Of a DNA stretch of 64,000 nt, positions 2,230 to 42,133 are shown in pieces. The stretch spans positions 10,705-74,704 of IMG/VR virus record IMGVR_UViG_2974644955_000001; one strand, 5' to 3'. The notes beneath the pieces are model-generated. The model had not been told where the DNA came from and did not search any database. It worked only from the letters and a program-made list of their open reading frames with translations. The stretch is from a virus. Taxonomy: Duplodnaviria; Caudoviricetes. The position numbers were made by a program, and so were the translations under genes. Position 1 is the stretch's first letter; each line of letters opens with the position of its first letter.

Positions 2230-2485
2230 ATGGGATCTCAACAAAGAAGCAGACAAAGAAGCACTACCGGAACCAACCTATGCAACACGCATGGACAAAG
2301 TGGAAAAGCTGTTCCGGTATGAGCATCTCCCTGATCATCTTCAGGAAGTCAGCAAGCCATTCCATGACATGGCTGTTGATCTTGTGGAGAATCTTCTGCC
2401 CAGTGCAGAAGTGACCTTGGCTATCCGGAAACTCTGGGAAGCGAAGAACCTGGCAGTGTATGCTGCCGTTGAAGCAACTGATTAA
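2222..2485 (+). CDS. Small helical-hairpin protein, Acb2/Tad1-like (putative immune-signal sponge)
   Basis: True start likely ATG 2222 (87 aa), overlapping the upstream stop; FRYEHLP...SAEVTLAIRKLWEAKNLA resembles the S-x-E-x-x-L-A-x-x-K-L-x-E-A hairpin of the Acb2/Tad1-type family (from recall). Confidence 0.5.
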   Translation: MAKWDLNKEADKEALPEPTYATRMDKVEKLFRYEHLPDHLQEVSKPFHDMAVDLVENLLPSAEVTLAIRKLWEAKNLAVYAAVEATD

Positions 2486-2498
2486 GGAGGTGCAAAAT

Positions 2499-2615
2499 AT
2501 GTTTGAATTTCTCATGGGAATGGGGGTTGGCCTAGTGGTTGGCTGGAACGTCCTTCCCCAACCTACCTGGGTCCGAAACCTTTACTCCCGCTGGACGGGA
2601 GGAGGTGATCTGTAA
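2499..2615 (+). CDS. 38-aa single-pass membrane microprotein (not in the ORF track)
   Basis: Strong RBS AAGGAGGT 8 nt upstream; MFEFLMGMGVGLVVGWNVLPQPTWVRNLYSRWTGGGDL; followed by a terminator. Confidence 0.75.
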   Translation: MFEFLMGMGVGLVVGWNVLPQPTWVRNLYSRWTGGGDL

Positions 2616-2647
2616 TCTCCCTGATCCATTGGTTCAGCGGTAAACAC

Positions 2648-2675
2648 AAACCCTCGCCTTCGGGCGGGGGTTTTT
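2648..2675 (+). terminator. Rho-independent terminator
   Basis: CCCTCGCC-TTCG-GGCGGGGG stem with cUUCGg loop followed by TTTTT. Confidence 0.9.
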
Positions 2676-2755
2676 CTTGACAAAACAGTTTAATCTGGTC
2701 TTGTGTCCTTCTATTTGGTACAGCAAGCTAACCCTTGAGAACCAAAGGAAGCATC

Positions 2756-3085
2756 ATGGCCGATACAGTCACATATCCATTTGTCCGAGGTGATGACTTC
2801 AGCATCACAATGACACTCACAGATCCACAGAACAACGATGCCCCAGTTGATATTACCAACTGGACCATTGCTTCTCAGGTTCGTTATCAGCGTCGTCTCA
2901 TTGATGATCTGGTCGTCACCAAAGATGACCCCGTAAATGGTGTCCTGACGCTCTCCAAGATCCGGACTGATACAATGCTCTGGCCAGCACGTACAGTTAA
3001 GTGCGACATTCAGTTTGATCGTCCTGAAGGACGTATCTCCTCTCAGACCTTTCTGATCGAAGTAACAGAGGATCAAACCCAATGA
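2756..3085 (+). CDS. Small beta-sandwich virion protein (BppU-N-like fibre adaptor)
   Basis: Start ATG 2756 after AAGGAAG; GDDFSITMTLTD...VDITNWTIASQVR pattern typical of beta-sandwich proteins preceding phage fibre genes; ATGA coupling to the collagen gene. Confidence 0.6.
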   Translation: MADTVTYPFVRGDDFSITMTLTDPQNNDAPVDITNWTIASQVRYQRRLIDDLVVTKDDPVNGVLTLSKIRTDTMLWPARTVKCDIQFDRPEGRISSQTFLIEVTEDQTQ

Positions 3086-5043
3086 ATGATCTGAACCTCA
3101 CAGCAGTAATGGAACCACGATACGTCCTGACTATTCAGGATCAATCTGTTGTTGTGGGTTCTGACTTCAATCTGACTCTTCAGGAAAACTCTGCACCCCT
3201 GAAGCTCACTCTTGGTCTCCAAGGCCAAAAGGGTATTCAGGGTGATGTAGGCCCACAAGGTCCAGTTGGCCCTGCTGGTCCCGCAGGAACAGACGGTACA
3301 GATGGTGTCAGCTTTGCCTTTGATGGCACAGATACCTTTGCCAATCGTAACCTTTACGACGCTGAAGTTGTCGGCTGGAGATTCTTGGCTTCAGACACTG
3401 GAGAGATCTATGTTCGACTGGATCCTACAGGCTGGTCTGCACCTATCCAACTGAAAGGTGACACTGGTCCCCAGGGACCACAAGGTATTCAGGGTGTCCA
3501 AGGACCAATTGGACCTCAAGGCAACCCTGGTGCTGATGGTCAAGGCTTCACAGTCGATGCTTATGCAGAACTCGTGAACCTTGGAACCTATGACAACGAA
3601 GCTGAAGGCTTCTCTGTTGTCGATCCTGTCACTGGTTTGCTCTACATCCGGTACAGCGTAGCTGGAACGTGGACCAATGGTATTCAATTCGTCGGTCCTG
3701 AAGGTCCAACCGGACCAATTGGACCTGCTGGCCCAACAGGTGCTCCGGGGGCTGCTGGTGCAGACGGTGCTGACTTTGCATTTGATGCAGTCGGAACACT
3801 ACCAGAAAAGAACCTCTATAACGCTCAACCAGAAGGTTTCACCTTCCTGGATGAAGTCAATGGTAACTTCTATGTCCGAAATGATGCCACCATTGGTGCA
3901 TGGACGAATGCTATCCCATTCCAAGGCCCGACAGGACCACAGGGTGCTCAAGGTGACGCAGGTATCAGTGCCTACGATCTGGCTGTCTCTCAGCAAGGTT
4001 TCGTTGGTTCAGTGTCTGACTGGCTCACCACTCTCACTGCATACGGTGTAGCTGTCTCCAATGGTTTCGTGGGAACTCAAGCTGACTGGTTGATCCATAT
4101 CAACGCATACGGCATTGCCGTACAGAATGGCTATCTGGGAACTCAGGCCCAATGGCTTCAGGACATGACTGCCTACGGTATCGCTGTCCTCAATGGATAC
4201 GCTGGAACCGAGCCTGAATGGCTGATTCACATCAATGCCTATGGACGTGCTCTGGACAACGGATTCGTTGGTACAGAACTCGAATGGCTGGATAGTCTCA
4301 CAGCTTATGGTGTGGCCCAGTCAAACGGATATGCTGGAACCAAAGCAGCATGGCTCACAAGTCTGACTGCCTATGGTGTCGCCGTGGACAATGGCTTTGT
4401 GGGTACTGAACCAGAATGGCTCACTCACATCAGTGCATATGGTGTGGCAGTTCAGAACGGATTCGTAGGGACCGAGCTTCAATGGCTCGACTCTCTGGTA
4501 GGCCCAATTGGCCCTCAAGGTATCCAGGGACTCAAGGGCGATACAGGTCAATCTCTGATCCCAGATGCCATTGATTTGTTCGCAAATCGTGCTCTTTATG
4601 ACACGGAACTTGAAGGTTTCGTGTTCATGGCATCAGATACTGGCTTGATTTACTTCAGAGAAACCGTTTTCAATGGAACATGGTCTGTCGGTGTACCCTT
4701 CCGGGGTCCAGACGGACTTCCAGGGGATGTCACAACTCGATCTTTGATCAACACAGCGACCTATACGGTTCTCAATACCGACCTTCAAACTGGTCGTGAG
4801 ATCAAGAAAGTCGATCATGCTGTCGGTTGTGCCATCACAGTTCCTGCTGGACTCACAAACCAAGAGCCATGCACATTCATTCAAACCAATGTAGGACAGA
4901 TCACCTTTGCAGGGGCTGTCGGAGTGACAATTCTCAGTGCTGATTCAGCACTACTCTCCCGTGTTCAAGGGAGTTTTGTCACTCTCTTGCCAGACGGTGA
5001 TACGGCTGATCTGTATTACCTCACAGGGGATATCGTAGCATGA
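3082..5043 (+). CDS. Collagen-like fibre protein (head or tail fibre) with modular repeats
   Basis: Several Gly-X-Y tracts; four ~50-aa globular repeats; eight 22-aa SAY..AV..GF.GT...WL..L repeats. Confidence 0.85.
   Translation: MNDLNLTAVMEPRYVLTIQDQSVVVGSDFNLTLQENSAPLKLTLGLQGQKGIQGDVGPQGPVGPAGPAGTDGTDGVSFAFDGTDTFANRNLYDAEVVGWRFLASDTGEIYVRLDPTGWSAPIQLKGDTGPQGPQGIQGVQGPIGPQGNPGADGQGFTVDAYAELVNLGTYDNEAEGFSVVDPVTGLLYIRYSVAGTWTNGIQFVGPEGPTGPIGPAGPTGAPGAAGADGADFAFDAVGTLPEKNLYNAQPEGFTFLDEVNGNFYVRNDATIGAWTNAIPFQGPTGPQGAQGDAGISAYDLAVSQQGFVGSVSDWLTTLTAYGVAVSNGFVGTQADWLIHINAYGIAVQNGYLGTQAQWLQDMTAYGIAVLNGYAGTEPEWLIHINAYGRALDNGFVGTELEWLDSLTAYGVAQSNGYAGTKAAWLTSLTAYGVAVDNGFVGTEPEWLTHISAYGVAVQNGFVGTELQWLDSLVGPIGPQGIQGLKGDTGQSLIPDAIDLFANRALYDTELEGFVFMASDTGLIYFRETVFNGTWSVGVPFRGPDGLPGDVTTRSLINTATYTVLNTDLQTGREIKKVDHAVGCAITVPAGLTNQEPCTFIQTNVGQITFAGAVGVTILSADSALLSRVQGSFVTLLPDGDTADLYYLTGDIVA
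3967..4497 (+). repeat. Coding tandem repeat, 8 x 66 bp (22 aa; first unit 23 aa)
   Basis: Units such as TAYGVAVSNGFVGTQADWLIHI, NAYGIAVQNGYLGTQAQWLQDM, SAYGVAVQNGFVGTELQWLDSL read directly from the translation. Confidence 0.92.
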
Positions 5044-13584: not shown

Positions 13585-13974
13585 ATGATCTTTGTCTTTG
13601 GTTCAAACAAAGCAGGCATCCATGGTGCAGGAGCGGCTCTCTATGCCAAGAAGCACCGTGGAGCCAAGCAAGGAATCGGAGAGGGCATAGTTGGAAACAG
13701 CTATGCCCTTCCCACTAAAGGATTCAAGGTCGAGGAAATCCCTCTCCTTGAAATCAAAAACAGCGTCAATCGCTTCATCGAAGTGGCTGAGTATTGGGCT
13801 TTGCGTGGTGCAGAGTTCCAGGTTACACGAGTTGGCTGTGGTCTAGGAGGTAAACTGGATTCGGACATCGCTCCGATGTTCAAGGCTGCCCCTGACAACT
13901 GTCTGTTTGATGAGTATTGGAAGCCCTGGCTCGACACATATGATGTGAAGCGGAGGTACTGGGGTACATTCTGA
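13585..13974 (+). CDS. Macrodomain-like protein (IFVFGSN/A1S_2505-like family)
   Basis: IFVFGSNKAGIHGAGAALYA, SYALPTK and FQVTRVGCGLGG resemble macro-fold ADP-ribose-binding loops. Confidence 0.7.
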   Translation: MIFVFGSNKAGIHGAGAALYAKKHRGAKQGIGEGIVGNSYALPTKGFKVEEIPLLEIKNSVNRFIEVAEYWALRGAEFQVTRVGCGLGGKLDSDIAPMFKAAPDNCLFDEYWKPWLDTYDVKRRYWGTF

Positions 13975-28728: not shown

Positions 28729-31700
28729 TCAATCTAGCATCAGGTTGTACCATGGGTTCAGTTCTGGTGCTGCAAACAGCATTTCCATACCCGTAGCATA
28801 ATCCAACCGTCCCTCGATCATGACCTGGAAGATGTTATCCTGGATCGGAGATCCGATATCAGGAAGCATCATGTTCAGAGCCAGTGACCGAACTGGGTTC
28901 TCCCGGATCTGCTTCATTGCGATCTTCGCAATACGCAGTTTGAAGGACGGGAACCACAGAAGACCCATACGTTCCAGATAGGATCGTGTCCGACCCGGAG
29001 CAGGAGTGAAGTTCACGAACTCTTCGTTCATCCGGGTAATAGCCTGCGACTCGCTAACTCCCTGTTTGATCAGGTGGTCGTAGTAGATAGACTTAGCCAA
29101 GAAGTCACCATACTGAGTTGCCCTGTTGGCAGCCTTGTACATATCGGTGGACTTCGAAACCATCCCAATCTTCACAATACCACCACCCACAGGCAGCTTG
29201 TCAGCGAGTTTCTCCATGTACTCAGCCAGCTTACCAGATGTGATTGCCACATCCAGGTCAGTGATACCCTCAGACAGTTGCTTGTAGGCACCAGCTTCGA
29301 TCATAGGAGCAATCGTCATACGCTTGTTCAGATCTTCGATCACTCGGATCTTGTCTTCAATCACAGTCCGACGCTGTTGGTTGTTACCAGCAAGCAGCAA
29401 CTGAGCCTGAAGCTCTTTGATCTTCACTTCGTTGTTGTTGTACTCTTCGATCTCAGCCAGCTTCGAACGGAAATCCTTCACCATGGTTTTGTGAGGGACA
29501 CCAGCATTCATCAACTGGATAGCGTTCGAACGCATGTTCATGGCAGGAACGATCAGAGAGCGAACCACAATGATATCCTTGGCCGTGGCTACGATCCCCT
29601 GGAAGCCTTCCTCACCAGCACTGAGCCACCGCATAGCACTACGTCCCAGGAGACGCTCTGTGCTCACACGCACGGCTTTCTGGACCTGATCAGGCATACG
29701 AGACTTCCCATTCCACATATCAGTGATGGAAGCCTCACGATAACCTACAGACAGATTGATCATGGCCCGAGGGATCATGACACCATCAGAACCGAAGATG
29801 TTCTCCAGATAAACCTTGGTGGTTTGTGGAACCAAAGACCAAGTATCCTTGTGGATAGGATCCTCAGACTCTTTGAAGTCAACGAACGTGCTCTCAGATC
29901 CACGCTCACGCTGATCCCAGACCTTCTTCAGTTCATCTGCCAGAGTCTTGTTGTATTCAGCAGCAAGGCTTTCTTCCACCTGACGACCAGCCCAAGCACC
30001 CATCATGACTGCAAGGTTCTCTTCACGACCAGAGTGCAGATCCATCACATCCTTGGAGACAGACAGTTCAAAGCCCTGGATGGAACCATCTTCAGCATGG
30101 ACAGGCATGACGTTTTCTTGATCATTTTCGACCGTAGTTGATTCACGAAGCTGATCGTTCACCAGACCGGGGACCAGACCATCCTCATTCGAGATGTATC
30201 CAGCAGTGTTCCCAGTGACGCTGAGACCGTTGCTTGTGTCCACACCACGATAGGTATTGGCCACGTTCTGGAGAGCACCCTGTGTATAGGCACCCTGACG
30301 ACGAACGTTGGAGATGTAATAGGATTTCGGGAACACCGAAGATGCGTCACCTGTATAGGCTCCCAGCTTCTTGTACCCTTTCCGGTTCATCTCACGCTCA
30401 GACTCATCCAGTTCCACAACGATCTGGAGGTTTTTGCCACCTTCATTGGGGATATACCCCTTCCAAGCATTCAGACGTGCTTGGTTCGAAGGCTCTTTGG
30501 CTTCTTCCTGTTCGCTCAACTGTTGCAGATATGTCACAATAGCAACGATTGCATTGGGATCGTTCTGCCAAAGCTGAACCACATCCTCACGAGTGGATGG
30601 ATCCATGACATCAATTGCCTTGATCGAGATCCAACGATCCAGAAGACCTTCCACTTCAGCAGGAATCGAACCTTCCAGACCATTCATAATGGCATAGGCA
30701 TTCCGCATCAGCATCTTGCCAACGATACCGTTGGACATGAAGTTTGCCAGTTGCTCACCCTTCTGGATAGCAGCATCAGCATTCGACTGGTTCAGCTTGG
30801 TCCGGATTTCGTTCTCGATGTTGTTCAGCATTGTCTGACGAGTCGAGCGTTCTTCCATCACCTTCATGGAGTTCTGCATGTTGTTCACATCCAGCACTGA
30901 ATAGACATCAGTCTTGGCCAGAGTGTTGAACATGGACTTCCACTGTTCCTTCGAAGGAGGAGTCTGGAACACACGCTCCAGGATACCAGGAAGATCCTCA
31001 CGGAAAGCCTGACGCATACCAGCGATACCTGCGTTGATCTTATCCAGGAGAGCAGTGATACGCTCATTCTGACGATCTGTACCCACCATCTCAGTGACCA
31101 GTTCCTGGAATGGAATCAAGACCTTCCATCCTTCAAACTGGTTCACGAACCGTTTCGAGGCTTCACCTGTCAGTGCAGCACCCTCACGAGAGAGAAGGTT
31201 TGTACCAGCCACAGTCACTGTACCCATCAACAGCTTCACAGCAGTGTTGCGAGTCGAGGCTTGAACATCAGCGTTCTTCTCACGCATCATGCCAGAGACG
31301 CTGGAGAATGCCCCAGACACATAGTTGTCTGCATTCTCCAGATTGGTCGTGATGTGAGACAGAACCCGATACTCTTCGTTCACGTCGTGATCGACGATAG
31401 TAGCAGCAATCAGATCCAGAACCTCTTTCGGTGGCTTCGTGTCAGCGTCCAGAGAAGCAGTGAGCTTCTGCATGGTGAATGCTGTCATCTTCTGCATGAA
31501 TGCAGGCAGAGTGCCTTGGATCGAGTTGTCCCCAGTCGGTTGAGGGATCTGCTCCATCACAGCTTTCATCCGAGTGGATGTCTGGCTCAAACCAAAGAGA
31601 ACAGCAACAGCGTGTCCAGGTGTTGCATCTTTGTCACTCAGAGTGTTCACCACAGCAGAGTAGATGTTGTTGGCTTCAGTACCTTCACCGAACATCTGAG

Positions 31701-34700
31701 GATCCAGATTGTCCAAGATATGCTGGAAGACACGAGTCAACTGGATCCGAGATTGAGGAGTCAGTTTCATCTCAGACAGCATGATACCGTAGATCGCTTT
31801 GAAGGTAGCCTGATCCCGTGTGTTGTGCAGCAGTCCAGCCTGACGCAGATCGTCGATCACCCGTTGGGCGTTGGCCAGTTCCAGAGAGGTACGCTGCACC
31901 TGCTCATCGGAAGCCTTATCAGCAATCCAGTCACGGAGAGTGTTGATCCAGTAGTTGGTGAAGTTGTGGAATGGATCATCCGTCTGAGGAGGACCACCGT
32001 TACCACCACCATCTCCATTGTTTCCACCACCGGAAACAATAACTCCACCACCCCCGGTTCCACCATCATTGTCTCCAAATAGGACACGAGTGTTGAAGAC
32101 CGTGTGGCTGAACATATCCTGACGAACACCACCCATGATCCGACGCATCAGTTTAACCACTGCATCAGAGATCTTCTTCAGGATGTTGGCCTGCTCATTT
32201 TCCAGGGTACGACGTACACCCTGATTGGACAGAGCATATGCCATGAATTCATTGATCGCAGATGCCTTGTCCTGGGGCTTACCTTTGACAAAGCGACGGT
32301 TCATCACAGACTGAGCACGCAGCACAGCCTTGTTATCGGATTCAATCTCGACGAACTGGCGAGCAAGATCTTCCAGACGCTCCACAGCAGGGTTCTTCTT
32401 CCCTTCGTAGTGCTCCAGCACTTTCCCATATGTGGCAGCATGAACCATCTCATGAAGGATAGTCTCGTTGCTCTTTGTGGTGATGTAGATGATGTCGTTC
32501 TTCGCATCATACGTCCCACGAGCACGCAGAACAGACCCATCATCAGGCATGTTCTCCCACTTCCATTGGTTCAATTGATCCAGAGTTCCGAAGATCACAC
32601 GAGTATCACCCAGCAGTGGCTTGAGGATATCCACTGTCTGCTTTTCATTCTGTGTCCATTTGGTCACTTTCAGAACGGTACGAGCATCAGAAACTGTGAC
32701 TGGGGTTTTTGTCTCAGCCCGGTCATTGATGTTGGATCCAGGATCTTTCATCTCCAGTTCGATACGTGCATTGGTTTCCGTCCGGTTCCATTCAGAACCA
32801 TCTTCAGAGAAACCAATTCCACCACCACCCATCTGATCGACAGACTTCTGCATCTGAGCAATGATCTTCTTCCGAGCCTTGTTCTCTTTGTAACGCTCTT
32901 TCAGTTGCTCATGCAGTTCTTTCCAGTTGGCAGCCACAACGGTTTTCTTCTTGAAGTTGCCCAGCACATCAGCCGCAGCAGCTTCAAAAGTTGCTGGATC
33001 ATCAACACGTTCCAGGAAAGACTCAAAGTTCTGAAGAGCCATGCCCAAGACATCACGCTTCCAGGATTTGTTCACAGCTTCGTTGATCTGAGGGCTGTAA
33101 TCCCGGATCTTCGTAACAGGCACGTCAAGGCCGTCAAAGACCCCTAAAACGTCTTCAGGGGCATTATCTGACCCAAAGAAGAAATTCATCATCATCGCAT
33201 CACCAGAACCAATGACCATGAATGGCAGGGCTTTCACACCGATATCATCAGGCAGAGGCATACGAGCCGGAGTCCGGATTCCTTCGTCCATGTTCGACGA
33301 CACACGCATGTCAGTCAGCTTCTTATCGAAGCCACCAATTGCCAGAGTCTGATCATCTGACCGGAAGATCGGAGTCAGTTGGTACATCTCTTTCTGGATC
33401 CGCTCAAACGTTGCACGAGGCAATTGAGCAGGACTACGGACACCAGCTTCCTTTACAGCGTCAGCGATGGCCTTGTCATACATCCGTTGGACATAAGCGT
33501 TCTGCATGTTGGTGACGAGCACCAGCATATCATTCAGTTGCTCGATACGAGGTCCAAGAACCTCACGAGTTGCATCAGTCAAAGCCTGACCAATGGTAAA
33601 CTGCACAGCAGTTTTGAACTTGTTCACCTGATCAATCGGGAACACGAAGTTCTTGTCTGGATTCTTTGGCAGAAACAGACCCATGTTGGCCATGTCTTCC
33701 CGGATCTCAGGGTAGAAATACTCTTCATAGGATTGGTTCTCACCCATCCCTTGAGCCTTCTCATAGAAGTCCAGCAGCATGTCCCCAGCAACACCAGAAG
33801 CCACACCTTGGACACCAGAACCATAGTTGACCTTGGTCATCGGGTTCTTGGCAGAACTACGGGTCATCCGGTATTCGATAGATCCATCAGGAGTTTCGAC
33901 CCTTTCACTCTCAGAGAATGCCCATGCCAGACGTTTGGCAGCAGCACGTTGCTTCCGTTGCCATGGTTTCAGATCCGTACCAGCGGCAGCCAGAAGGTCA
34001 TCAGTCCGTTGAGCCACTTGCTCATAGAGGTCAGTGGTTTGCTTTGAACCAAAATAATCATTCACTGTCCGACCGATCTTCCCAAGGAAGAGACCGATAC
34101 GGTTGAAGTTTTCCCACTCTTCAGCAGCAATCAAACCATGGCCAAAGTTCACCATCATGTTTGCAGCACCGTTGGTCAAACCATCAAGCTCAAAGCTCAG
34201 AGATGTCTCAAAGGAAGTTTCACCACTTTCCAGAGCCAACTCCATAGATGCCATAGCTTCAATGGCCCCAAGCACAGCAGGGTCATCAGACTGGAGAGCC
34301 TCAATGTAGGTATCCACATCGACCTCACCCCCAGTGAGGATCGCCTTGGTCATGTCCACAGCAGGACGGAACTTCGCTTCAAAGGCTTCTTTCACCTCAG
34401 AAAGAACCTCTGTCTCATTCCGCTTCTCGACTTTGAACAGACCAGAAGCCTGTGCAATCCCCAACCAGAAACCATCCATATCAGCCTTGTCATTCGTATC
34501 GACAGTGCTCCACGTAGGAGATGCAAAGAAACGAAGGAGTTTATTGGCTTGAGGGTTCGGACCCTGATACTGGTGACGACCTACTTTCGTGATCCCGACC
34601 GGGTAGTAGATCAGAGCCTGGATGTTATCACCCAGAGCAGACATGATCTCATTCACCTCAATGATGTTCAGACGGACTGTGGCATTCTTGCCCAGTGCAG

Positions 34701-37700
34701 ACTTCCGAAGGATAGGATGTGCAATCGTCGTAGCATCAGGAACGAAACCAAGCCACTTCTCCAGACCATCTTCACCCAGTGCTCCGAGAATCGTACCCCG
34801 GTTCACATTTGCACGGTGGCCAGTATCCTGCATCTTCTTCACAGCTTTGGTGATCAACGAGGACAAACGTACATCAGACCGTTCCCCTTTGACTGGGACA
34901 GTCTTGATCTTCTCACCAATCGAATAGGTTGCACGCACGTCGTTGAAGATCGACTCACGAGCAGTGTTTGTGACACGTTCACCACCTGCGTTGCGGATAC
35001 GCTGTTGCAGTGTGGTAAGTTTGTCACCAGTGACTGTGATCGTCAGAGCCTCATCAGCATTCGGAGGAGTGATCTCAACAGATCCACCCAGTCCTGCACT
35101 GACCGAAGTTGCACCACTCAGTTTGATCTTATCAACAGAGACGATATCCATCTCATCCATGATCGTGATCATCTCAGCAGCAAAACCTTGAGCCAGACCT
35201 TCCAGTTCATTGACTGGACGATCCTTGTTCTCAGAGCGGTTCATGAGACGCATGAAGTCAGATGCCAATTGGTCTTTGACCTGTGATGCAGGAAGACCAT
35301 TCAGGATCGCTTGTAGGCTGGACTCTTCCACATCGTTCATGGTCAGACCACGATCTTCGAGGGTGTCATCCAACTTACGAGGATCAATAGCAGCAGCAGA
35401 TGTGATGAAGTCCACGATAGCAATCGTAGCCATTTCAATCACTTGGTTATCATATGCCTGAGTTTCAGGGTTCATCAGAGCAATCATCTTGAATTGCTTG
35501 AAGAATTTCCCTGACAGGAAGTGTTCAGCAAAGGTAGCTACCTTGCCAGAGTTCTTCACTTTCCGCTGAAGACGGGCATTCAATCGACGACCGATCTCAG
35601 CTTTCAGTTCCCTGGCGACAGTGATGTGTTCCTGGTTCATGCCTTCACGGGCAGCCAGATCATCAATCCCTTTGACTGGAGCTTCCCCACCCTTGGTAGG
35701 GAAGTTCTCATCAGCAGCCGGACTTACTTGGGCTTCTTCAGGGGTTCCATCTCCTGGCTCTTCGGTGGTGCTTGGAACGTCGATGGCGTCACCTTCGCTG
35801 ACTTCGGTGCTTTCAGCGGGAGTTCCAACTGTATCTCTTTCCCTTGGGCCATAGACTTCCTCCATCAATTCCTTGGCTTTGTTCATACCATCCATCAAGG
35901 ATGGATCTTTCGAGAACCACAATTCACTGATGATTGCGAAGATCTCTCGACGACGTTGTGTATCACTATCCTGACCAACCGCATAGTCATAACGACCACG
36001 TACCCAGTCACCACGATCTTTCAGCAGTTCAAATTCAGCAGTGATGGCTCCATCCTGATCGAAGGAGACACGAGAAGAGATCTCACGATCTACATCACCA
36101 AAGGATTTCTCAGAGAAATCAATGATGTGTGCCATTTCGTGAATGACCACAGCTTTACCGAGACGAGTCAGTTCCTGCTTCTCTGCATCCCAGAGTTCAT
36201 CACTCAGGAAGATCTGGTTCGATTCATCATCGGCCATACCAGCATCATTCATGACTTCAGCAGGGTACATGACAATACCCTTCTCACGACGGGCCAGCTT
36301 GTTCCCGAAGTATTCCTTGATCAAAGAGCGAGCAGCACGACGGAAAGCAGTCTTCTGTTCATCCAGACGTTTACGTGGACCTTCAGGCCACATCTCAGGA
36401 GTTGTCAGAAGTTCATATACCTTTTGATACTCCTGCTCATCGGATGAAGATTCACCTCCCTCTTCATTTCCCTCCTCGGGTTCTGACTCGCTACGCTCAT
36501 CAGAAGCCTCGTCGCTCAATTCATCACTCCGTGATTCTCCATCCTCTTCGACAGCCGTTGGTTGATCAATGTCCTGTTGCAAAATTGTCACACCAGAAGC
36601 GTCACGTTTCACAACCATGATCTCTCCGTCGAGACCTCGGACAATGGCACCATCATAGCCACCCTGAACCATCAAACCATTGAGATCTTTCTGGTTGTTG
36701 ATCCAGAATTGATCTGGTCTCTGGCCAGGAACATCAATCTCCATAGGCTTTTGAAGATCTACAGCGACCTCTTTCACATGAGGATCGTTGCCACCTTTGA
36801 GGTTTGAAAGTTTGGCGTAATCACGAGCCAACTCAAGACTGTTCGTGAAGAACAGACCTGATTTGTCTTTCAAATTCTTACCTACTTTTCTGACATCAAA
36901 CTGCTCAAACCGACTTCCTGTACCGTGATACAGTTGCATCAGTTGTGGTTCACCAGCAGTCAGAGTAGCCCCTTCAGGAACATTGAAGTTATCTGGTAGT
37001 TCATCTGTACGGTCATTCAGGATCTCATTCAGAGTATCCAGATCTTCTTGACGTTCAGCCAACAGCTTCTCAAACTTCTGGATCGGACCTGTTTCAGTTC
37101 CAGGGTTCCGTGTCTCACGGGCAATCAATCGGTTCAGACGCTTACGAGCTTCTGCCACCTGCTTCTCAGCAAATGTGATCTGATCTGCCAGAGCTTCATC
37201 AGAGATGTTCTCATATGCCTTCTTACGTCGTGAGGCTTGGGTATCCTCCTCGACCTCGGTTGCCCCCTCGGTCTCGTCGATAGCCGTTGGGGTTTCTGTC
37301 TGTTCTTGTGTTTGTGGGTTTTGCTCGTCGGTTTCCTGGCCGGAAACCTCCTCGATACCCGTTGGTTTCGGGTCAGGCTTCGCCACCTCGATGTTTTCCA
37401 TCGGCTTCGCATCAGCATCAAAGAACTCAGGGAATTCCTGAAGCAGAAGATTATACGTATCAATCAATGCGTTAGCATCCTGCTCGACTTGCAGAGCCAA
37501 GGCAGCAGACTTCTCATTGGTTGGGGAATACCACACACCTTTGATCGAAGTCTTGTTCCCCTCAGTGGTACGCAGTTCACCATTCATCAGAGCTTGGAAA
37601 TCAACCGTAGGAGCCACAACATTCCCACTCTCAGTGGTTACGTTATTGGCAGCCGACTCATTCAGAGCAGTGACTTTGTTCACCATGTGCTGGGCAAAGT

Positions 37701-40011
37701 TACGCAATTCCTTCGCCACAACTCCCGCAGTGACGACCTGTCCTTTTTGGTTGATGATCGCAGCGTCTTTGGGGAAAATCCCCGTCTGGGCAACTGCCTG
37801 CGCTGCGAGGACTAGATCCCGTCCAAAGTCATTGATGGAACGATAACCCTTACGAACTTTAGGGTCATTCCGACCTTCGGTGAAGATCTGACGACTTACT
37901 CCTTTGATCGTCTTTTCTTGAGTCTTTGGGCGGGAGCCTGGTTTCAGTGAGATATTCTCACCTTCACTCAACTCAGCCTGGCTCTCGACATTACGATTGA
38001 TGATCTCAGCCAGACGAGAAGACACACGAATATACTTCGCGTCTTCCGGACTCACATCCCTCTCATTATCTTCCAAAAGATTGTTGCCCACATCTGGGTT
38101 CATGTTACCCGGATTGGTACGTGCAACGTTGACCACACTCGATGTGGATGTATCTGCACCCTCATCGTTCAGATCGACAGCAGCAGCCCTCTCACGGATG
38201 TTCTTGACCATCTTGGTAGACATCAAACGACCAACAGCCTTCTGTTGATCTTGAGGCAATGAACCAACGATAGACTCCAGACGGTTCACCATGTCAGCAG
38301 CATAGACCACATCTTGATCTGTTGGTTTGAAGCGACGGGTTCCCATCTTGGCCATAATACCAGTCAGGCTTTCAACGATATTCCGTCCACCACCAGCAAC
38401 GTCAGAGAAGCCCTCTGGAGCTTCACGAGCATCCGGAGCGTCAATCACTTCAGTGACCTTGGGATCAATGGTTCCATTGGCAGCCTCGGTACGAAGAGCC
38501 TCAGTCACATCAATTGTGGTCTGTACGTTCTGACGAACTTCTTTGTTGTCAGTGGAGTCATCAATCCGATTGAGACCCTCATTGACCACTGCACCAGCAG
38601 CACGAGCCACAGGAGCAGCAGCAGCCCCGACAGCTTCACCTACAGGAGCGAGAGCACGTCCAGTCGCATCAGCAGCCCTGGAAGCCCGTGAGCCTTCTCC
38701 TGGAGCCGTTTCAGCGAACAGAGCATTAGCTGCATTGCGTGCTGTACCAAGAGCAACAGCAGGAGCACCCATGGTTCCAGCAGTACCCACACCAGCAACA
38801 AAACCTACACCTGCCCCTGTACCGACACCTTCCATGGAATCACGGCCAATGGCAGCGTAATCCTCAACGGCAATGTTTCGGTTATAGACAGACGTACCTT
38901 CCTGACCCAGTTCTTCAACACCCTCACCTGCAATTTGCAGAAGGTTGGAAGCAACACCTTGGCCTCTGAATGCCAGAGGACCAAGAGCTTCAAAACGAGA
39001 AGTGATGAAACCAATGGCCATAGTAGATGGAACCTGACGAAGCAGAGCAGTTTCAGCAGCCAAACCAGCAAGCTGAACCTTTGCTTCTTCGGGGGTCATA
39101 GTCGGATCTTCATCCAGCATAGCCTGCATGACAGGAGACGTAGCCAAGAGTTTCTCAGTTTCGATCCCCATGACATCTGTGACAGTCTCGGAATAGACGT
39201 TACCCAGTTCAGGGAAACCTGTGGTCGCAGAAATGGCCATTGTTCCAGCAACACGTTGAGCCAGAACACTCTTGGTTGCCACACCAGCGGCTTGCATTGC
39301 AGCCTTACCTGCCACACCACCCAATGGCGCTGTGAAAACCATATCACCAACAGACTCAGCAATCGTATTGGACAGCAAACCAGGATCACGAAGATATCGT
39401 TGACCTGCATTTACAGCGTTACGACCTTCACGCTGCCATTTGGCAATAGTTTCACTTTTTCCTGCCTCAATGTCACGTTGGTATTGAGCCTCAGAATCCT
39501 GTTCATCCAGTTGACCTTCGATACCCTCGAAGTACCGTTTGCCTTGGAGTTCGTCAGACAGGTTCATCTCTTGCATTCCTGCAACGATCTCAGCATGAGC
39601 CTGCATGAGAGGAGCAGCACGTTCTGCACCTGAACCACCTTCAGGATTCAACCATGCACGAGCATAGGAATCAGCAAGAATACCTGCTTGTCCCAAGGAG
39701 CGATATGCCCCGGTGGAAGCAGAAACAAATAGATCACTGGCAGCAGTGTCTACATCATCAGAGGTATTGAGACGTTCTTCACCACGAACAAGACGGTGAC
39801 GGTTGTTCGCAACATCATCCCCGTACTTCATACGAAGACCGGAGACACTCATTTCACGAAGGTCTGTGGAGAGTTCAGTATCTGCTAGATCGTTACCACG
39901 CTTGTTGGCGACAGCGAGAGTATCTTGGACTTGTCGATCACGCAAATCTGGGGCTTGAGCCAGAGTAGCTTCAATCTCTTCGTCCACCGAAGGGGTAACT
40001 CGATCATTCAT
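28729..40011 (-). CDS. vRNAP: Virion-encapsidated RNA polymerase (N4 gp50-like), 3760 aa, multidomain
   Basis: Motif A FELDGLTNG, motif B RSSAKNPMTKVNYGSG, motif C LGVFDGL; giant size; no Cys found on reading the translation; C-terminal HEMVH zincin. Confidence 0.97.
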   Translation of the reverse strand: MNDRVTPSVDEEIEATLAQAPDLRDRQVQDTLAVANKRGNDLADTELSTDLREMSVSGLRMKYGDDVANNRHRLVRGEERLNTSDDVDTAASDLFVSASTGAYRSLGQAGILADSYARAWLNPEGGSGAERAAPLMQAHAEIVAGMQEMNLSDELQGKRYFEGIEGQLDEQDSEAQYQRDIEAGKSETIAKWQREGRNAVNAGQRYLRDPGLLSNTIAESVGDMVFTAPLGGVAGKAAMQAAGVATKSVLAQRVAGTMAISATTGFPELGNVYSETVTDVMGIETEKLLATSPVMQAMLDEDPTMTPEEAKVQLAGLAAETALLRQVPSTMAIGFITSRFEALGPLAFRGQGVASNLLQIAGEGVEELGQEGTSVYNRNIAVEDYAAIGRDSMEGVGTGAGVGFVAGVGTAGTMGAPAVALGTARNAANALFAETAPGEGSRASRAADATGRALAPVGEAVGAAAAPVARAAGAVVNEGLNRIDDSTDNKEVRQNVQTTIDVTEALRTEAANGTIDPKVTEVIDAPDAREAPEGFSDVAGGGRNIVESLTGIMAKMGTRRFKPTDQDVVYAADMVNRLESIVGSLPQDQQKAVGRLMSTKMVKNIRERAAAVDLNDEGADTSTSSVVNVARTNPGNMNPDVGNNLLEDNERDVSPEDAKYIRVSSRLAEIINRNVESQAELSEGENISLKPGSRPKTQEKTIKGVSRQIFTEGRNDPKVRKGYRSINDFGRDLVLAAQAVAQTGIFPKDAAIINQKGQVVTAGVVAKELRNFAQHMVNKVTALNESAANNVTTESGNVVAPTVDFQALMNGELRTTEGNKTSIKGVWYSPTNEKSAALALQVEQDANALIDTYNLLLQEFPEFFDADAKPMENIEVAKPDPKPTGIEEVSGQETDEQNPQTQEQTETPTAIDETEGATEVEEDTQASRRKKAYENISDEALADQITFAEKQVAEARKRLNRLIARETRNPGTETGPIQKFEKLLAERQEDLDTLNEILNDRTDELPDNFNVPEGATLTAGEPQLMQLYHGTGSRFEQFDVRKVGKNLKDKSGLFFTNSLELARDYAKLSNLKGGNDPHVKEVAVDLQKPMEIDVPGQRPDQFWINNQKDLNGLMVQGGYDGAIVRGLDGEIMVVKRDASGVTILQQDIDQPTAVEEDGESRSDELSDEASDERSESEPEEGNEEGGESSSDEQEYQKVYELLTTPEMWPEGPRKRLDEQKTAFRRAARSLIKEYFGNKLARREKGIVMYPAEVMNDAGMADDESNQIFLSDELWDAEKQELTRLGKAVVIHEMAHIIDFSEKSFGDVDREISSRVSFDQDGAITAEFELLKDRGDWVRGRYDYAVGQDSDTQRRREIFAIISELWFSKDPSLMDGMNKAKELMEEVYGPRERDTVGTPAESTEVSEGDAIDVPSTTEEPGDGTPEEAQVSPAADENFPTKGGEAPVKGIDDLAAREGMNQEHITVARELKAEIGRRLNARLQRKVKNSGKVATFAEHFLSGKFFKQFKMIALMNPETQAYDNQVIEMATIAIVDFITSAAAIDPRKLDDTLEDRGLTMNDVEESSLQAILNGLPASQVKDQLASDFMRLMNRSENKDRPVNELEGLAQGFAAEMITIMDEMDIVSVDKIKLSGATSVSAGLGGSVEITPPNADEALTITVTGDKLTTLQQRIRNAGGERVTNTARESIFNDVRATYSIGEKIKTVPVKGERSDVRLSSLITKAVKKMQDTGHRANVNRGTILGALGEDGLEKWLGFVPDATTIAHPILRKSALGKNATVRLNIIEVNEIMSALGDNIQALIYYPVGITKVGRHQYQGPNPQANKLLRFFASPTWSTVDTNDKADMDGFWLGIAQASGLFKVEKRNETEVLSEVKEAFEAKFRPAVDMTKAILTGGEVDVDTYIEALQSDDPAVLGAIEAMASMELALESGETSFETSLSFELDGLTNGAANMMVNFGHGLIAAEEWENFNRIGLFLGKIGRTVNDYFGSKQTTDLYEQVAQRTDDLLAAAGTDLKPWQRKQRAAAKRLAWAFSESERVETPDGSIEYRMTRSSAKNPMTKVNYGSGVQGVASGVAGDMLLDFYEKAQGMGENQSYEEYFYPEIREDMANMGLFLPKNPDKNFVFPIDQVNKFKTAVQFTIGQALTDATREVLGPRIEQLNDMLVLVTNMQNAYVQRMYDKAIADAVKEAGVRSPAQLPRATFERIQKEMYQLTPIFRSDDQTLAIGGFDKKLTDMRVSSNMDEGIRTPARMPLPDDIGVKALPFMVIGSGDAMMMNFFFGSDNAPEDVLGVFDGLDVPVTKIRDYSPQINEAVNKSWKRDVLGMALQNFESFLERVDDPATFEAAAADVLGNFKKKTVVAANWKELHEQLKERYKENKARKKIIAQMQKSVDQMGGGGIGFSEDGSEWNRTETNARIELEMKDPGSNINDRAETKTPVTVSDARTVLKVTKWTQNEKQTVDILKPLLGDTRVIFGTLDQLNQWKWENMPDDGSVLRARGTYDAKNDIIYITTKSNETILHEMVHAATYGKVLEHYEGKKNPAVERLEDLARQFVEIESDNKAVLRAQSVMNRRFVKGKPQDKASAINEFMAYALSNQGVRRTLENEQANILKKISDAVVKLMRRIMGGVRQDMFSHTVFNTRVLFGDNDGGTGGGGVIVSGGGNNGDGGGNGGPPQTDDPFHNFTNYWINTLRDWIADKASDEQVQRTSLELANAQRVIDDLRQAGLLHNTRDQATFKAIYGIMLSEMKLTPQSRIQLTRVFQHILDNLDPQMFGEGTEANNIYSAVVNTLSDKDATPGHAVAVLFGLSQTSTRMKAVMEQIPQPTGDNSIQGTLPAFMQKMTAFTMQKLTASLDADTKPPKEVLDLIAATIVDHDVNEEYRVLSHITTNLENADNYVSGAFSSVSGMMREKNADVQASTRNTAVKLLMGTVTVAGTNLLSREGAALTGEASKRFVNQFEGWKVLIPFQELVTEMVGTDRQNERITALLDKINAGIAGMRQAFREDLPGILERVFQTPPSKEQWKSMFNTLAKTDVYSVLDVNNMQNSMKVMEERSTRQTMLNNIENEIRTKLNQSNADAAIQKGEQLANFMSNGIVGKMLMRNAYAIMNGLEGSIPAEVEGLLDRWISIKAIDVMDPSTREDVVQLWQNDPNAIVAIVTYLQQLSEQEEAKEPSNQARLNAWKGYIPNEGGKNLQIVVELDESEREMNRKGYKKLGAYTGDASSVFPKSYYISNVRRQGAYTQGALQNVANTYRGVDTSNGLSVTGNTAGYISNEDGLVPGLVNDQLRESTTVENDQENVMPVHAEDGSIQGFELSVSKDVMDLHSGREENLAVMMGAWAGRQVEESLAAEYNKTLADELKKVWDQRERGSESTFVDFKESEDPIHKDTWSLVPQTTKVYLENIFGSDGVMIPRAMINLSVGYREASITDMWNGKSRMPDQVQKAVRVSTERLLGRSAMRWLSAGEEGFQGIVATAKDIIVVRSLIVPAMNMRSNAIQLMNAGVPHKTMVKDFRSKLAEIEEYNNNEVKIKELQAQLLLAGNNQQRRTVIEDKIRVIEDLNKRMTIAPMIEAGAYKQLSEGITDLDVAITSGKLAEYMEKLADKLPVGGGIVKIGMVSKSTDMYKAANRATQYGDFLAKSIYYDHLIKQGVSESQAITRMNEEFVNFTPAPGRTRSYLERMGLLWFPSFKLRIAKIAMKQIRENPVRSLALNMMLPDIGSPIQDNIFQVMIEGRLDYATGMEMLFAAPELNPWYNLMLD

Positions 40012-40072: not shown

Positions 40073-42133
40073 TTACTGTACTCGACGGACTGAAGCCCCT
40101 GGACCTGGAGTAGCAAGAGCAGCCGCAGCTTCCCTTGCATCTTCTTCCTCAACGATAGAGGAGTATTGTTGCAGTTCTTTCACCAAACCTTCACGTTGTT
40201 CCCGCAAGTCTTGCAGTTGAGTCTCATAACGACGTTTCAGTTCTGGGTCATTCTGTACAGCAGAACGACGCAACTGAGACTGGATCTGAGCTTCTTGAGA
40301 AGCATTCAGAGTCATTTCACGATCAACACGATCAATGTTGTTCCGGGCTTCTGCGAAGTTCCGGCCACCATCAGTCGAGTATGTACCAAGCAGTTCTTCC
40401 ATCCGGTCAATGCTGACTTGGTTGTTGAGTGTGTTACGACCAGTTGGGTCAGCTTCAAACACACGAGAAGCCAACGCATAAACCTCATCAATCGTAAGAT
40501 CTGGATCCGATTTCCGAAGTTCACGGTGTGCTTTCTGCAAGTGCTGATCCATGGTTGCTGGATCAAAGTCTGCATCCCGACCAAAGATCGGGTTGTTCTC
40601 GAAGTCATCATCCATCAGACGGAACTGATCAATCAGAGCAGCCGACTTCTCAGTGGATGTGCTCATCCCTGCGAAACCTTCTGCATCCACAGTCAACTGT
40701 GCTTCTGGTGTACCACCAACGGCACCACGAGCCAGACCAATATCAGTCTGTTGATCAGCCGTTTGTGTCTGACGAATCAACTGTTCAGCAGTAGATTCAC
40801 CTGGAGTGAGGTTTTCCTGAAGGATCGGGCTGCCATCATAGATCTCAGACAGACGTTGTTCCAACGCATAGATCTCTGGTTCAGACATATCCAAACCAGT
40901 TTGCAGCATTTCTTCACGACCTTGACGAATGAATTGCTCTTTCGTTGTGATGTTTGGATCCTGAGACAAGCTCTCAGCAGTCAGCAGAGTCTGATCAAGG
41001 ATAGTCTCAACACGCTGTTCTTCGTTGAGTGTATCACCCCGTGTTGCAGCTTCTTCCAATGGAGACTGTTCTGCTCGGATTTCAGAAGGAACGAACAGAC
41101 CAGATGCAGCCATACGAGCAGCAGTCTGATCACCACCAAATCCACGAATAGGTTCTTGATTGCCTTGGTTGTCCCGACGATCATTGACGATTGGACCACC
41201 CCAAGCAGGCTGAGAAATAGCAGGGTTGTAATAGTGAGTCGCACCCTGTGTCGGATCTTCATACTGACCACTCAGAATTGCTTGAGCTACAGCCATAGCT
41301 TCTTCACCTGGCTGGAAGTTCATATCCTGACCTTGTTCACCACCAGCATAGCCAGTTTGTGAATTCCAGGCAGAGAATTGGCCAGGTTTCATGATGACGC
41401 CATCAATGCCTTCACCATATTTTCCTGACGCAGCACGGTTACGAATGACCGAACCAACAGCCAACATACCTTCAGCACCTTGGTTCCCGGCTTCTGCTTG
41501 CAGAGTACGAGCCAAACGCATGACAGTTTCAGGAGAAGCCTGAACGGCTCCTGTGTTACCGTTGACTGGGCCTTGGCCCGGATCAGCGTTACCAAAGACG
41601 TGATCACCAGCACGGACAAATTCACCTTGTCCCCGTGGGATCGAGCTACCATTGTTCAGACCACCAAGGCGATCATTGACGATACTGCCAGCATTTTCCT
41701 GAAGCCATTCACGTTGATCAACCATACGGCCATCTTCACGCATAAAGATCCCGTGTTTGTCACGAGATTGGCTCATGTTCTGATACGTGTTCGCTGTGCG
41801 AGCATCAGTATTTCGGGTGTTGGAATTCGTGTAATCCAGATCACTCCGACGAGTCATCGTATCACGAAGATCAGTCAGACCTTTCTCACCCAGATTCAAA
41901 TCATCGAATGCACCAGCTTGGTACATTGCAGTGATCTCATCTTGGCTCTTACCACCAGTCCGACGAAGAAGTTCATTGTGTGCTTTGGTTTCAGCACCTT
42001 CTTGATAAGACGAAAGAATTCCTTTGGCTGCCTCACCAGCAGCCATTAGAGATTCATTGGAGCCTCGCATCAAACCAGCCACATTAGGTTGGGCTTGGTT
42101 CAACTGTCGCCACTGGAGTCTTGGATCAGCCAT
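40073..42133 (-). CDS. Ejection/internal virion protein (N4 gp51 position) with SleB-type cell wall hydrolase domain
   Basis: LARTLQAEAGNQG..GMLAVGSVIRNR, VIMKPGQFSAWN, GATHYYNP; no Cys seen; next to vRNAP. Confidence 0.85.
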   Translation of the reverse strand: MADPRLQWRQLNQAQPNVAGLMRGSNESLMAAGEAAKGILSSYQEGAETKAHNELLRRTGGKSQDEITAMYQAGAFDDLNLGEKGLTDLRDTMTRRSDLDYTNSNTRNTDARTANTYQNMSQSRDKHGIFMREDGRMVDQREWLQENAGSIVNDRLGGLNNGSSIPRGQGEFVRAGDHVFGNADPGQGPVNGNTGAVQASPETVMRLARTLQAEAGNQGAEGMLAVGSVIRNRAASGKYGEGIDGVIMKPGQFSAWNSQTGYAGGEQGQDMNFQPGEEAMAVAQAILSGQYEDPTQGATHYYNPAISQPAWGGPIVNDRRDNQGNQEPIRGFGGDQTAARMAASGLFVPSEIRAEQSPLEEAATRGDTLNEEQRVETILDQTLLTAESLSQDPNITTKEQFIRQGREEMLQTGLDMSEPEIYALEQRLSEIYDGSPILQENLTPGESTAEQLIRQTQTADQQTDIGLARGAVGGTPEAQLTVDAEGFAGMSTSTEKSAALIDQFRLMDDDFENNPIFGRDADFDPATMDQHLQKAHRELRKSDPDLTIDEVYALASRVFEADPTGRNTLNNQVSIDRMEELLGTYSTDGGRNFAEARNNIDRVDREMTLNASQEAQIQSQLRRSAVQNDPELKRRYETQLQDLREQREGLVKELQQYSSIVEEEDAREAAAALATPGPGASVRRVQ

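Follow-up and report, generated by a model that had tools for sequence, protein, structure and literature searches.

The fusion of an ADP-ribosyltransferase (ART) domain to the virion RNA polymerase (vRNAP) of an N4-like phage has been known since 2017, probably from the very protein described here. Iyer et al. (PMC5512222) described the family with the vRNAP of Roseovarius Plymouth podovirus 1 (RPP1) as its prototype, gave its site residues as H, Y and D, grouped the family with the protein-modifying ARTs and proposed an Alt-like role for the vRNAP-ART fusion, so the Alt-like idea is not new. The domain analysed here shares with that prototype (PMC5512222, PMC9503650) the Pfam family, the setting of an N4-like vRNAP with zincins and the H/aromatic/D site; apart from a Phe at strand 2, where PMC5512222 names a Tyr, there is no substantive difference between the two. 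The type-B ARTs of DSS3phi2, EE36phi1, DS-1410Ws-06 and related roseophages lie in the same slot (approximately residues 940-1090), belong to the same Pfam family and have the same H and D, but they are only 26-30% identical to the type-A domain of the window (the whole 64,000-nucleotide stretch of DNA that was analysed) and differ from it by a shorter loop after the FD motif and by FLT in place of FFT.

The likeness to T4 Alt (proposed in PMC5512222) is that of a head-carried ART delivered with the DNA and modifying the host before phage expression. Alt is a separate protein of the R-S-E (Alt/VIP2) clade, whereas the domain here is embedded in a polymerase and has an H-[F/Y]-D site, and no Alt/VIP2 family was matched in the Pfam scan of the vRNAP; the resemblance would thus be one of function only. 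In a literature search, we found no enzymatic data for any ART-PolyVal domain.

The polymerase gene and its modules

The ART domain is part of a long minus-strand gene, whose relevant features are as follows.

28729-40011, minus strand: N4-like vRNAP gene (P0001), 3,760 amino acids, from the list of open reading frames and the translation
37006-37299, minus strand: helical (coiled-coil-like) segment, approximately residues 905-1002, accompanying type-A ART
36943-37005, minus strand: 21-residue linker DELP..FNVPEGAT..TAGEPQ from the helix to the ART
36586-36942, minus strand: ART-PolyVal domain, residues 1024-1142, a 357-nt cassette, from Pfam PF18760, homologues, the AF2 model, ART-fold matches and its exact absence in relative L001
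36427-36564, minus strand: acidic low-complexity linker C-terminal of the ART, approximately residues 1150-1195, from the translation; PTAVEE... is common to relatives
35851-36258, minus strand: zincin-like metallopeptidase module (Peptidase_M90 / SprT-like) with HEMAH at residue 1291, from Pfam and the HExxH motif
32440-32454, minus strand: HEMVH motif in the C-terminal zincin module that N4-like vRNAPs have in common, from motif positions

A Pfam scan of the 3,760-residue protein matched vRNAP_dom at residues 2259-2395 with 159 bits, and N4_RNAP_helical was also matched. The ART is thus found in a polyvalent-protein setting, inside a vRNAP with two HExxH modules. The first of these, the HEMAH zincin module, scores 26.3 bits in the window protein, where the cut-off is 26.2, and up to 47.2 in relatives, and its HExxH is kept in those relatives that possess the module. 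The second, which Iyer et al. 2017 (PMC5512222) described, has its HEMVH motif conserved in all 16 full-length relatives. GC content was approximately 49%.

The original prediction had placed ART motifs at 36580-36945. We found them there on the minus strand; the plus-strand reading of the same interval contains stops. The acidic low-complexity linkers that it described on both sides of the domain are visible in the translation, and its assignment to ART-PolyVal held, PF18760 scoring 36.5 bits (gathering cut-off 31.2) in the scan of the vRNAP and 40.1 bits (E 1.9e-11) in a genome-wide scan. The match in the window protein spans profile positions 5-70 of 140, and relatives align over positions 1-136; in the family alignment, the C-terminal half beyond the Pfam match (P1089, GYDG) is conserved as well. 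A full HMMER scan gave 317 homologous proteins at E <= 1e-3, the homologous domains lying mostly within polyvalent proteins of 1-6 kaa and frequently in multiple copies in each. The motif agreement of residues 1024-1142 with ART-PolyVal is far beyond chance, and the segment is a genuine domain of this family ('N4-ART', related to Tox-ART-HYD2).

A separate gene at 13585-13974, considered as a macrodomain eraser partner, found no support in its sequence: it matched no Pfam family at E <= 0.1 and no PDB sequence, and its only match was to PHROG 2072 (function unknown).

Fold and site residues

The AF2 model of the ART domain was confident (pLDDT 92.6, pTM 0.87), and it matched ART-fold proteins in the fold comparison that the original prediction had proposed. 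With Foldseek, diphtheria toxin was matched at E 5e-5 and, among the matches listed, all with E < 0.02 had the ART fold; VIA gave Z-scores of 8.3-9.2 to MbcT, NatT, tankyrase, PARP1 and PARP2 over residues 12-141, the best 50 matches all being of ART fold. The best match in BFVD was a roseophage vRNAP (TM 0.71), followed by many 'ART-PolyVal' proteins. As modelled, residues 1024-1142 have an ADP-ribosyltransferase fold. In the PDB, a single-sequence search gave only a chance match to SufE (E 0.38), and a profile of the A1 alignment matched almost exclusively H-Y-E ARTs, weakly (best E 0.06) and with the His and Tyr aligned. A weak Foldseek match (E 0.025) was to a cyanophage A4 pre-ejectosome chain (9k3a_B), whose paper does not mention ART.

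Diphtheria toxin, cholix toxin and the PARPs and tankyrases share the fold (VIA Z 8.3-8.9 over approximately 110-115 residues) and align at YHGT and G.Y/F.., but they are only 12-17% identical and have a catalytic Glu in place of the Asp (D1120) found here, and the core of our domain is much smaller (approximately 120 residues). The top structural neighbours were MbcT and NatT (Z 9.2 and 8.8, 129-137 aligned residues), which are 8-11% identical, have other catalytic residues and belong to toxin-antitoxin systems, not to virions. As these two toxins degrade NAD+, their position at the head of the Z-scores would fit an NAD+-consuming NADase or phosphorylase that, rather than transferring ADP-ribose, lowers NAD+ or destroys NAD-derived defence signals at the entry site. 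We consider this very improbable: the Z-scores are tied with those of the PARPs and tankyrases, the motifs YHGT, G.[FY]F[TS] and A..YA align with diphtheria-toxin/PARP-type transferases and not with RES-type sites, and a handful of tethered copies in each cell would deplete a metabolite only inefficiently.

The motifs start in the vRNAP at residues 1027 (LYHGTG), 1052 (GLFFTN), 1118 (GYDGAIV) and 1128 (DGEIMVV). Conservation at the predicted site was counted in 96 sampled homologues.

36925-36927, minus strand: H1029, predicted NAD-binding/catalytic His of strand 1 (YHGT), 96/96 homologues
36850-36852, minus strand: F1054, strand-2 aromatic at the 'Y' position of H-Y-[ED], F in 76/96 and Y in 17/96 homologues
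36817-36819, minus strand: Y1065, second aromatic 11 residues past F1054 (A..YA helix), Y in 80/96 homologues
36652-36654, minus strand: D1120 of GYDG, predicted catalytic acid, D in 96/96 homologues and invariant in the A1 alignment
36622-36624, minus strand: E1130, the Glu proposed earlier, E in 24/96 homologues, at the start of the strand following that of D1120

Eight positions (H1029, G1030, F1038, G1052, F1055, A1062, P1089 and D1120) are invariant in the family. The His that the original prediction placed near residue 1029 is among them; it lies within strand 14-22 of the model and aligns with the His of YHGT/FHGT in cholix toxin and PARP12. F1054 aligns with the Tyr that PARP12 and cholix toxin have in GxY[FV]A; at this strand-2 position, where a Tyr is named for ART-PolyVal, the Phe keeps the aromatic character, and Y1065 aligns with the second Tyr of cholix toxin (AHGYA).

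The assignment to the H-Y-E type and the choice of a Glu near residue 1130 as catalytic did not survive this comparison. The start of strand 5 carries an Asp and not a Glu: D1120 directly precedes strand 112-116 of the model, the start of the fifth strand, and it agrees in position with the strand-5 aspartate that Iyer et al. 2017 (PMC5512222) describe. Conservation in just a quarter of the homologues (24/96) and a location on the next strand rule out E1130 as the catalytic residue, although the position is acidic in all 10 vRNAP-borne copies. Judged from the alignments, the predicted site is H1029 / F1054 / Y1065 / D1120, that is, of the published H-Y-D type with a Phe at strand 2. The replacement of E1130 by D1120 matters for the design of an activity experiment: as D1120 is invariant and E1130 is not, E1130A would be the wrong test mutant.

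A variable slot in the polymerase

Residues 910-1439 of the window protein correspond to approximately 100 residues (945-1045) in N4, and sequence comparison puts the ART in a variable slot at the boundary of the N-terminal and polymerase domains. Searched as whole genomes, N4, Axy11, RHph_Y38, Ebordelon and phiCB2047-B (Schitoviridae) gave no PF18760 match at E <= 0.1, and a purpose-built ART HMM was negative on the vRNAPs of the same five phages. The domain is thus an insertion upstream of the polymerase core without a counterpart in these ordinary N4-like vRNAPs, as the original prediction had it, and not a segment that aligns to all of them.

Among 15 relatives, presence of the ART was scattered and divided between two subtypes, A and B, sharing just 26-30% identity and discordant with the tree of the polymerase core. 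Site residues are retained in both vRNAP-borne subtypes despite 27% identity. The helical segment forms one continuous block with the ART in the window, L013 and P0004 and is absent from L001, L004, L007 and L010. A sister protein has 14 residue differences overall, none of them inside the ART domain. The patchy, cassette-like distribution suggests a payload under changing selection, as expected of a function in host conflict.

The clearest case is the relative L001 (P0003), in which exactly the 357 nt of the ART cassette are missing and the rest of the protein is 83% identical. Three features mark the edges of the cassette.

36933-36938, minus strand: TGCAAC, left member of a 6-bp direct repeat on either side of the cassette, gene nt 3074
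36576-36581, minus strand: TGCAAC, right copy of the direct repeat, gene nt 3431
35332-36582, minus strand: tract of high identity to L001, starting precisely where the ART cassette ends on its 3' side

The two TGCAAC copies are exactly 357 nt apart, and L001 has a single copy at the junction; as a control, a repeat of at least 6 nt occurred at the same offset in 8 of 240 control zones. In windows of 150 nt, identity to L001 is 91-100%, mostly 98-100%, over residues 1144-1560; outside the tract, it is 64-85% upstream of the variable zone and mostly 70-85% beyond residue 1560. The 21-residue linker is kept in the ART-less L001 with 79% identity and, by its sequence, reads as a vestige of the module. 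The clean absence in a close relative means that the ART domain is dispensable. The variable slot, the lack of the domain in N4 and the four other Schitoviridae, the patchy distribution of two subtypes, the exact 357-nt absence with its repeat and the NADAR-like addition in L013 are newly described here.

Clean loss in L001, scattered presence across relatives and a Phe in place of the nominal Tyr would also fit a leftover domain that is dispensable and non-catalytic, or a module serving only structure or binding. We find this improbable, as every family-invariant position is intact, the AF2 model is confident and compact, the two subtypes share the same site residues at 27% identity, and Phe is the majority residue at the strand-2 position among the sampled homologues.

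In L013, a type-A ART like that of the window is followed immediately by a NADAR-like domain (phrog_1017 E 2.6e-9; Pfam matches below cut-off to NADAR, E 1.3e-4, and to Phage_30_3, E 2e-4; best PDB match YbiA, E 0.17). NADARs that have been characterised strip ADP-ribose off the bases guanine and cytidine (PMC11543638, PMC12945103), and the vRNAP itself binds ssDNA hairpins; both speak for an ART that modifies not protein but host or phage DNA or RNA, such as ssDNA or RNA near the entering genome. Such a target appears unlikely, given that the NADAR call is subthreshold and comes from another phage, that the domain could equally be injected to counter a host DarT-type defence (PMC11825919), independently of the ART, and that Iyer et al. 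(PMC5512222) place the family with protein-modifying ARTs. Equally tentative is a wider proposal in which the slot of Rhodovirinae vRNAPs would be a recombination-driven 'effector bay', its modules (two ART-PolyVal subtypes, zincin, NADAR-like and unknown ones) being swapped or deleted quickly like polymorphic toxin tips, and the type-A ART, sometimes with NADAR, targeting nucleic-acid bases and not proteins. If true, the vRNAP would be a delivery chassis whose payload follows host defences.

Proposed action in the host

Our preferred reading, to which we give a probability of roughly 0.6, is that the ART-PolyVal domain, probably catalytically competent and placed between acidic linkers at the boundary of the N-terminal and polymerase domains, would enter the host with the vRNAP and mono-ADP-ribosylate a host macromolecule before phage expression. 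If the phage behaves like N4 and DEV, its virion would carry a few vRNAP copies that leave it together with the DNA; their C-terminal part would remain on the channel spanning the envelope, and the N-terminal and polymerase parts would reach the cytoplasm. The study of DEV counted the vRNAP as an ejection protein whose C-terminal part lies on the periplasmic tunnel. Using host NAD+, the ART would then modify its target before any phage gene is expressed, either tethered or after release by the adjoining zincin peptidase. The vRNAP is not listed among the bands identified in RPP1 virion mass spectrometry, and packaging in this phage thus rests on homology. Against this reading, we count the strand-2 Phe instead of the family's named Tyr and the existence of an 83%-identical relative without the domain.

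Many ARTs auto-modify. With the ART placed between flexible linkers in a very-low-copy protein held at the membrane channel, modification of the vRNAP itself or of ejection proteins, regulating ejection, promoter use or release, is conceivable. We rate such action in cis as highly improbable: the vRNAPs of ART-less relatives are otherwise similar, and hundreds of unrelated polyvalent proteins that have no polymerase carry a domain of the same family, which points to a target independent of the polymerase.

If the domain is active, T4 Alt would have a second, independent counterpart as an ADP-ribosylating enzyme delivered with phage DNA, here with the ART physically fused to the first enzyme acting on the genome. 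The ART prediction has stood since 2017, and a culturable host together with natural ART-less relatives makes this a convenient test system. The Bxa MuF-ART represents a different ART context.

A domain inserted at a boundary of the vRNAP

The protein P0001 was identified as an N4-like virion RNA polymerase (vRNAP) by its Pfam matches, vRNAP_dom (159 bits, residues 2259-2395) and N4_RNAP_helical. The genome encoding it has a GC content of about 0.49 and a CheckV completeness of 100 for the record, and the 90% cluster of the protein includes a second 3760-aa sequence differing at 14 residues. Aligned with N4 gp50, P0001 shows two alignable blocks, residues 152-910 and 1439-3757; between them N4 has ~100 residues (945-1045), at the boundary of its N-terminal domain and mini-vRNAP, while the window vRNAP has ~530. 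The gene and the elements of the extra stretch are as follows.

Layout of the vRNAP gene and its extra stretch
28729..40011, minus: N4-like virion RNA polymerase gene, P0001 (11.3 kb, 3760 residues)
P0001 residues about 905-1002: helical segment, first element of the extra stretch
P0001, between helical segment and ART: 21-residue linker
P0001 residues 1024-1142: ADP-ribosyltransferase (ART) domain, after the 21-residue linker
P0001, after ART and before the zincin-like module: acidic linker
P0001 residue 1291, HEMAH: zincin-like module (Peptidase_M90 26.3 bits, cut-off 26.2; up to 47 bits in relatives)

Residues 1024-1142 are a real ART domain. The motifs on which the original prediction was built are present in P0001 (LYHGTG from residue 1027, GLFFTN from 1052, GYDGAIV from 1118 and DGEIMVV from 1128), and its coordinates were correct once read on the minus strand, the plus strand containing stops there. 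The assignment to the ART-PolyVal family and to the ART fold holds at the levels of sequence and structure alike. Pfam ART-PolyVal (PF18760) matched residues 1023-1096 with 36.5 bits (cut-off 31.2), ahead of a weaker second match to DUF3990 on the same stretch, and a genome-wide scan for the family gave a single match of 40.1 bits. With residues 1000-1170 as query, an exhaustive HMMER search recovered 317 proteins at E<=1e-3, most of them 1-6 kaa long and many with several copies of the domain. Nearly all PDB matches of a 20-sequence profile were to diphtheria toxin, cholix toxin, PARP10 and PARP12, with weak E values (0.06-0.9), the alignments placing YHGT on the catalytic His and G.FF on the GxY[FV]A tyrosine. 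The AlphaFold2 model of residues 1010-1150 (pLDDT 92.6, pTM 0.87) matched diphtheria toxin (E 5e-5), SAIP, MbcT and tankyrases in Foldseek, and VIA gave Z 8.3-9.2 for MbcT, NatT, tankyrase 1/2, PARP1 and PARP2 over model residues 12-141. A search of predicted viral structures ranked a roseophage vRNAP fragment first (TM 0.71, rmsd 1.9); dozens of proteins named ART-PolyVal came after it.

Many giant polyvalent proteins among the homologues carry 4-10 ART copies per polypeptide, in tandem or dispersed, in agreement with the 12-copy Pseudomonas example of Iyer et al. 2017 (PMC5512222). Foldseek with the model (window 36562-36984) also gave a weak match (E 0.025, TM 0.47) to chain B of the cyanophage A4 pre-ejectosome (PDB 9k3a); the paper on that structure makes no mention of an ART-like domain, and chain B may contain an unannotated one.

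Two side observations concern other genes. Upstream of the vRNAP, a 686-aa gene (window 40073-42133, minus) is homologous to a Hydrolase_2-domain gene of L001, a locus with a related vRNAP, and corresponds to gp63 of Roseovarius Plymouth podovirus 1 (RPP1), seen in virions by mass spectrometry (Chan et al. 2014); it forms part of a conserved ejection operon of three genes, as described for phage DEV. A 129-aa gene (window 13585-13974, plus) belongs to PHROG 2072, of unknown function (E 1.5e-47). Neither Pfam (at E<=0.1) nor a sequence search of the PDB gave a match for it, and its sequence lends no support to a macrodomain reading.

Conservation of the predicted catalytic site

Over an alignment of 96 homologous ART domains, H1029, G1030, F1038 and D1120 were invariant, and G1052, F1055, A1062, P1089, Y1028, T1031, F1035, D1039, A1066 and G1121 were kept in at least 82; in the 20-sequence alignment, G1052, F1055, A1062 and P1089 were invariant as well. 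Position 1054, a Phe in the window, is Phe in 76/96 and Tyr in 17/96 homologues; its aligned counterpart in PARP and toxin ARTs is the strand-2 Tyr. Eleven residues after position 1054 stands Y1065, kept in 80/96. Diphtheria toxin and PARP1 stack nicotinamide between tyrosine pairs, Y54/Y65 and Y896/Y907, and the F1054-Y1065 spacing is the same as in these pairs.

A candidate catalytic glutamate had been placed at E1130. Glu occupies this position in only 24/96 homologues and lies at the start of the following strand, which together rule it out as the catalytic acid of the family; the invariant acid is D1120, immediately preceding model strand 112-116. Position 1130 is acidic in all 10 of the 10 vRNAP-borne ART copies, and the role of E1130 may be specific to that subfamily. 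Iyer et al. 2017 (PMC5512222) described an "aspartate in strand 5" for the family, which agrees with the position of D1120.

The fusion of an ART to a vRNAP is already known. In the same study, polyvalent-protein ARTs are said to be "prototyped by" the domain in the RPP1 vRNAP, which is given an H, Y, D site and grouped with the Tox-ART-HYD2 clade; a later survey counted an "N4-like" family among the commonest ARTs of viruses (Iyer et al. 2022, PMC9503650). The window vRNAP is probably the published prototype protein itself, and the original prediction, its catalytic residue apart, is essentially the published reading. The literature searched contained no experimental work on any ART-PolyVal domain. 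Our additions are modest: the H/F/Y/D residue map and the placement at the domain boundary.

Turnover of cassettes in the vRNAP slot

The segment is not the ordinary N-terminal domain of all N4-like vRNAPs, the alternative reading named at the outset, as it lacks a counterpart in N4 and four other phages. Scans of five complete genomes (N4, Achromobacter Axy11, Rhizobium RHph_Y38, Pseudomonas Ebordelon and Sulfitobacter phiCB2047-B) gave no PF18760 match at E<=0.1, with the window's own genome as the positive control, and our own HMM agreed. A homologue of the vRNAP core is present in 219 phage records; of these, tblastn found the domain only in 14 roseophage records, and it also found one copy in a crAss-like phage.

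Nine of 15 related vRNAPs carry the ART, and the polymerase-core tree requires at least five gains or losses, no fewer than with shuffled labels. The domains fall into type A (the window, L013 and P0004, the latter two 59% and 49% identical to the window's domain) and type B (DSS3phi2, EE36phi1, L006, L008, L009 and L012, each 26-30% identical to it). The split into subtypes is not mirrored in the core tree: at 47% identity, the core of the window vRNAP is closer to that of the type-B carrier DSS3phi2 than to that of type-A L013 (43%). Presence of the zincin is independent of the ART, all four combinations being seen among relatives. Two relatives hold other contents in the slot.

Other contents of the slot
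L013:7298-7900 (IMGVR_UViG_3300035698_000573), vRNAP residues about 1180-1380: NADAR-like domain directly after the type-A ART
L016:7517-8563 (IMGVR_UViG_3300027082_000001), vRNAP residues about 962-1310: ~350 unassigned residues where relatives hold ART and/or zincin

The L013 domain matched Pfam NADAR (E 1.3e-4) and Phage_30_3 (E 2e-4), both under cut-off, and PHROG 1017 (E 2.6e-9), its top PDB sequence match being YbiA (2b3w, E 0.17). The L016 stretch had no convincing Pfam match, the best being GP11 (E 0.005).

The closest view of a change comes from P0003, the metagenomic vRNAP of L001, which is 83% identical to P0001 over the 2617 residues that follow the ART. Exactly residues 1024-1142, 357 nt in the DNA, are missing from P0003, as is the helical segment; the 21-residue linker and the TLQQDID junction are retained.

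Features at the cassette edges
36933-36938 and 36576-36581, minus: TGCAAC 6-bp direct repeat flanking the ART cassette, copies exactly 357 nt apart
35332-36582, minus: high-identity tract to L001, 1.25 kb, residues 1144-1560

L001 has one TGCAAC copy at the junction; repeats of at least 6 nt at a 357-nt offset occurred in 8/240 control zones (about 3%). The vestigial linker and the direct repeat both favor loss of the ART by the L001 lineage over its acquisition by that of the window. The tract, beginning exactly at the 3' edge of the cassette, is 91-100% identical to L001 per 150-nt window and 98-100% over most of its length; most of the sequence upstream of the variable zone is 64-85% identical, and that beyond the tract mostly 70-85%, with one short peak of 92-96%. 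This marks a recent recombination tract inside the vRNAP gene, abutting the ART domain. The ART is a mobile, dispensable cassette, and the evidence points to rapid change of cassettes in the slot. With the two ART subtypes, the clean and recent loss seen in the close relative L001 and the NADAR-bearing variant, this further extends the published account.

Proposed action and targets

Beyond the family, fold, site conservation, position and modularity of the ART, which are observed, we infer a course of action. As its homologues in N4 and DEV suggest, the vRNAP would be packaged in a few copies and ejected, its C-terminal part sitting on the periplasmic tunnel protein, which that part binds in DEV (PMC11445570), and the remainder projecting into the cytoplasm. 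The RPP1 virion proteomics (Chan et al. 2014) does not list the vRNAP among the excised bands, so packaging in the window's phage is a prediction from homology. Once in the cytoplasm, the ART would have access to NAD+ and host targets ahead of any phage gene expression. Because Asp replaces the PARP Glu, mono- rather than poly-ADP-ribosylation is suggested, an argument based on PARP E988 variants. Release of the domain by the adjacent zincin, hypothesized by Iyer et al. 2017 (PMC5512222), is one possibility, and action of the still tethered domain is another.

Candidate targets are host RNAP, defence proteins or nucleic acids. T4 Alt acts on host RNAP, and the window's ART may share this target as one option among several. 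The NADAR-like neighbor in L013 weakly supports a nucleic-acid substrate, because characterised NADARs de-ADP-ribosylate guanine and cytidine bases (PMC11543638, PMC12945103), but it might equally be injected to counter DarT-type defence (PMC11825919), independently of the ART. As judged from its sequence, the L013 vRNAP could possibly combine a writer and an eraser on a single injected polypeptide.
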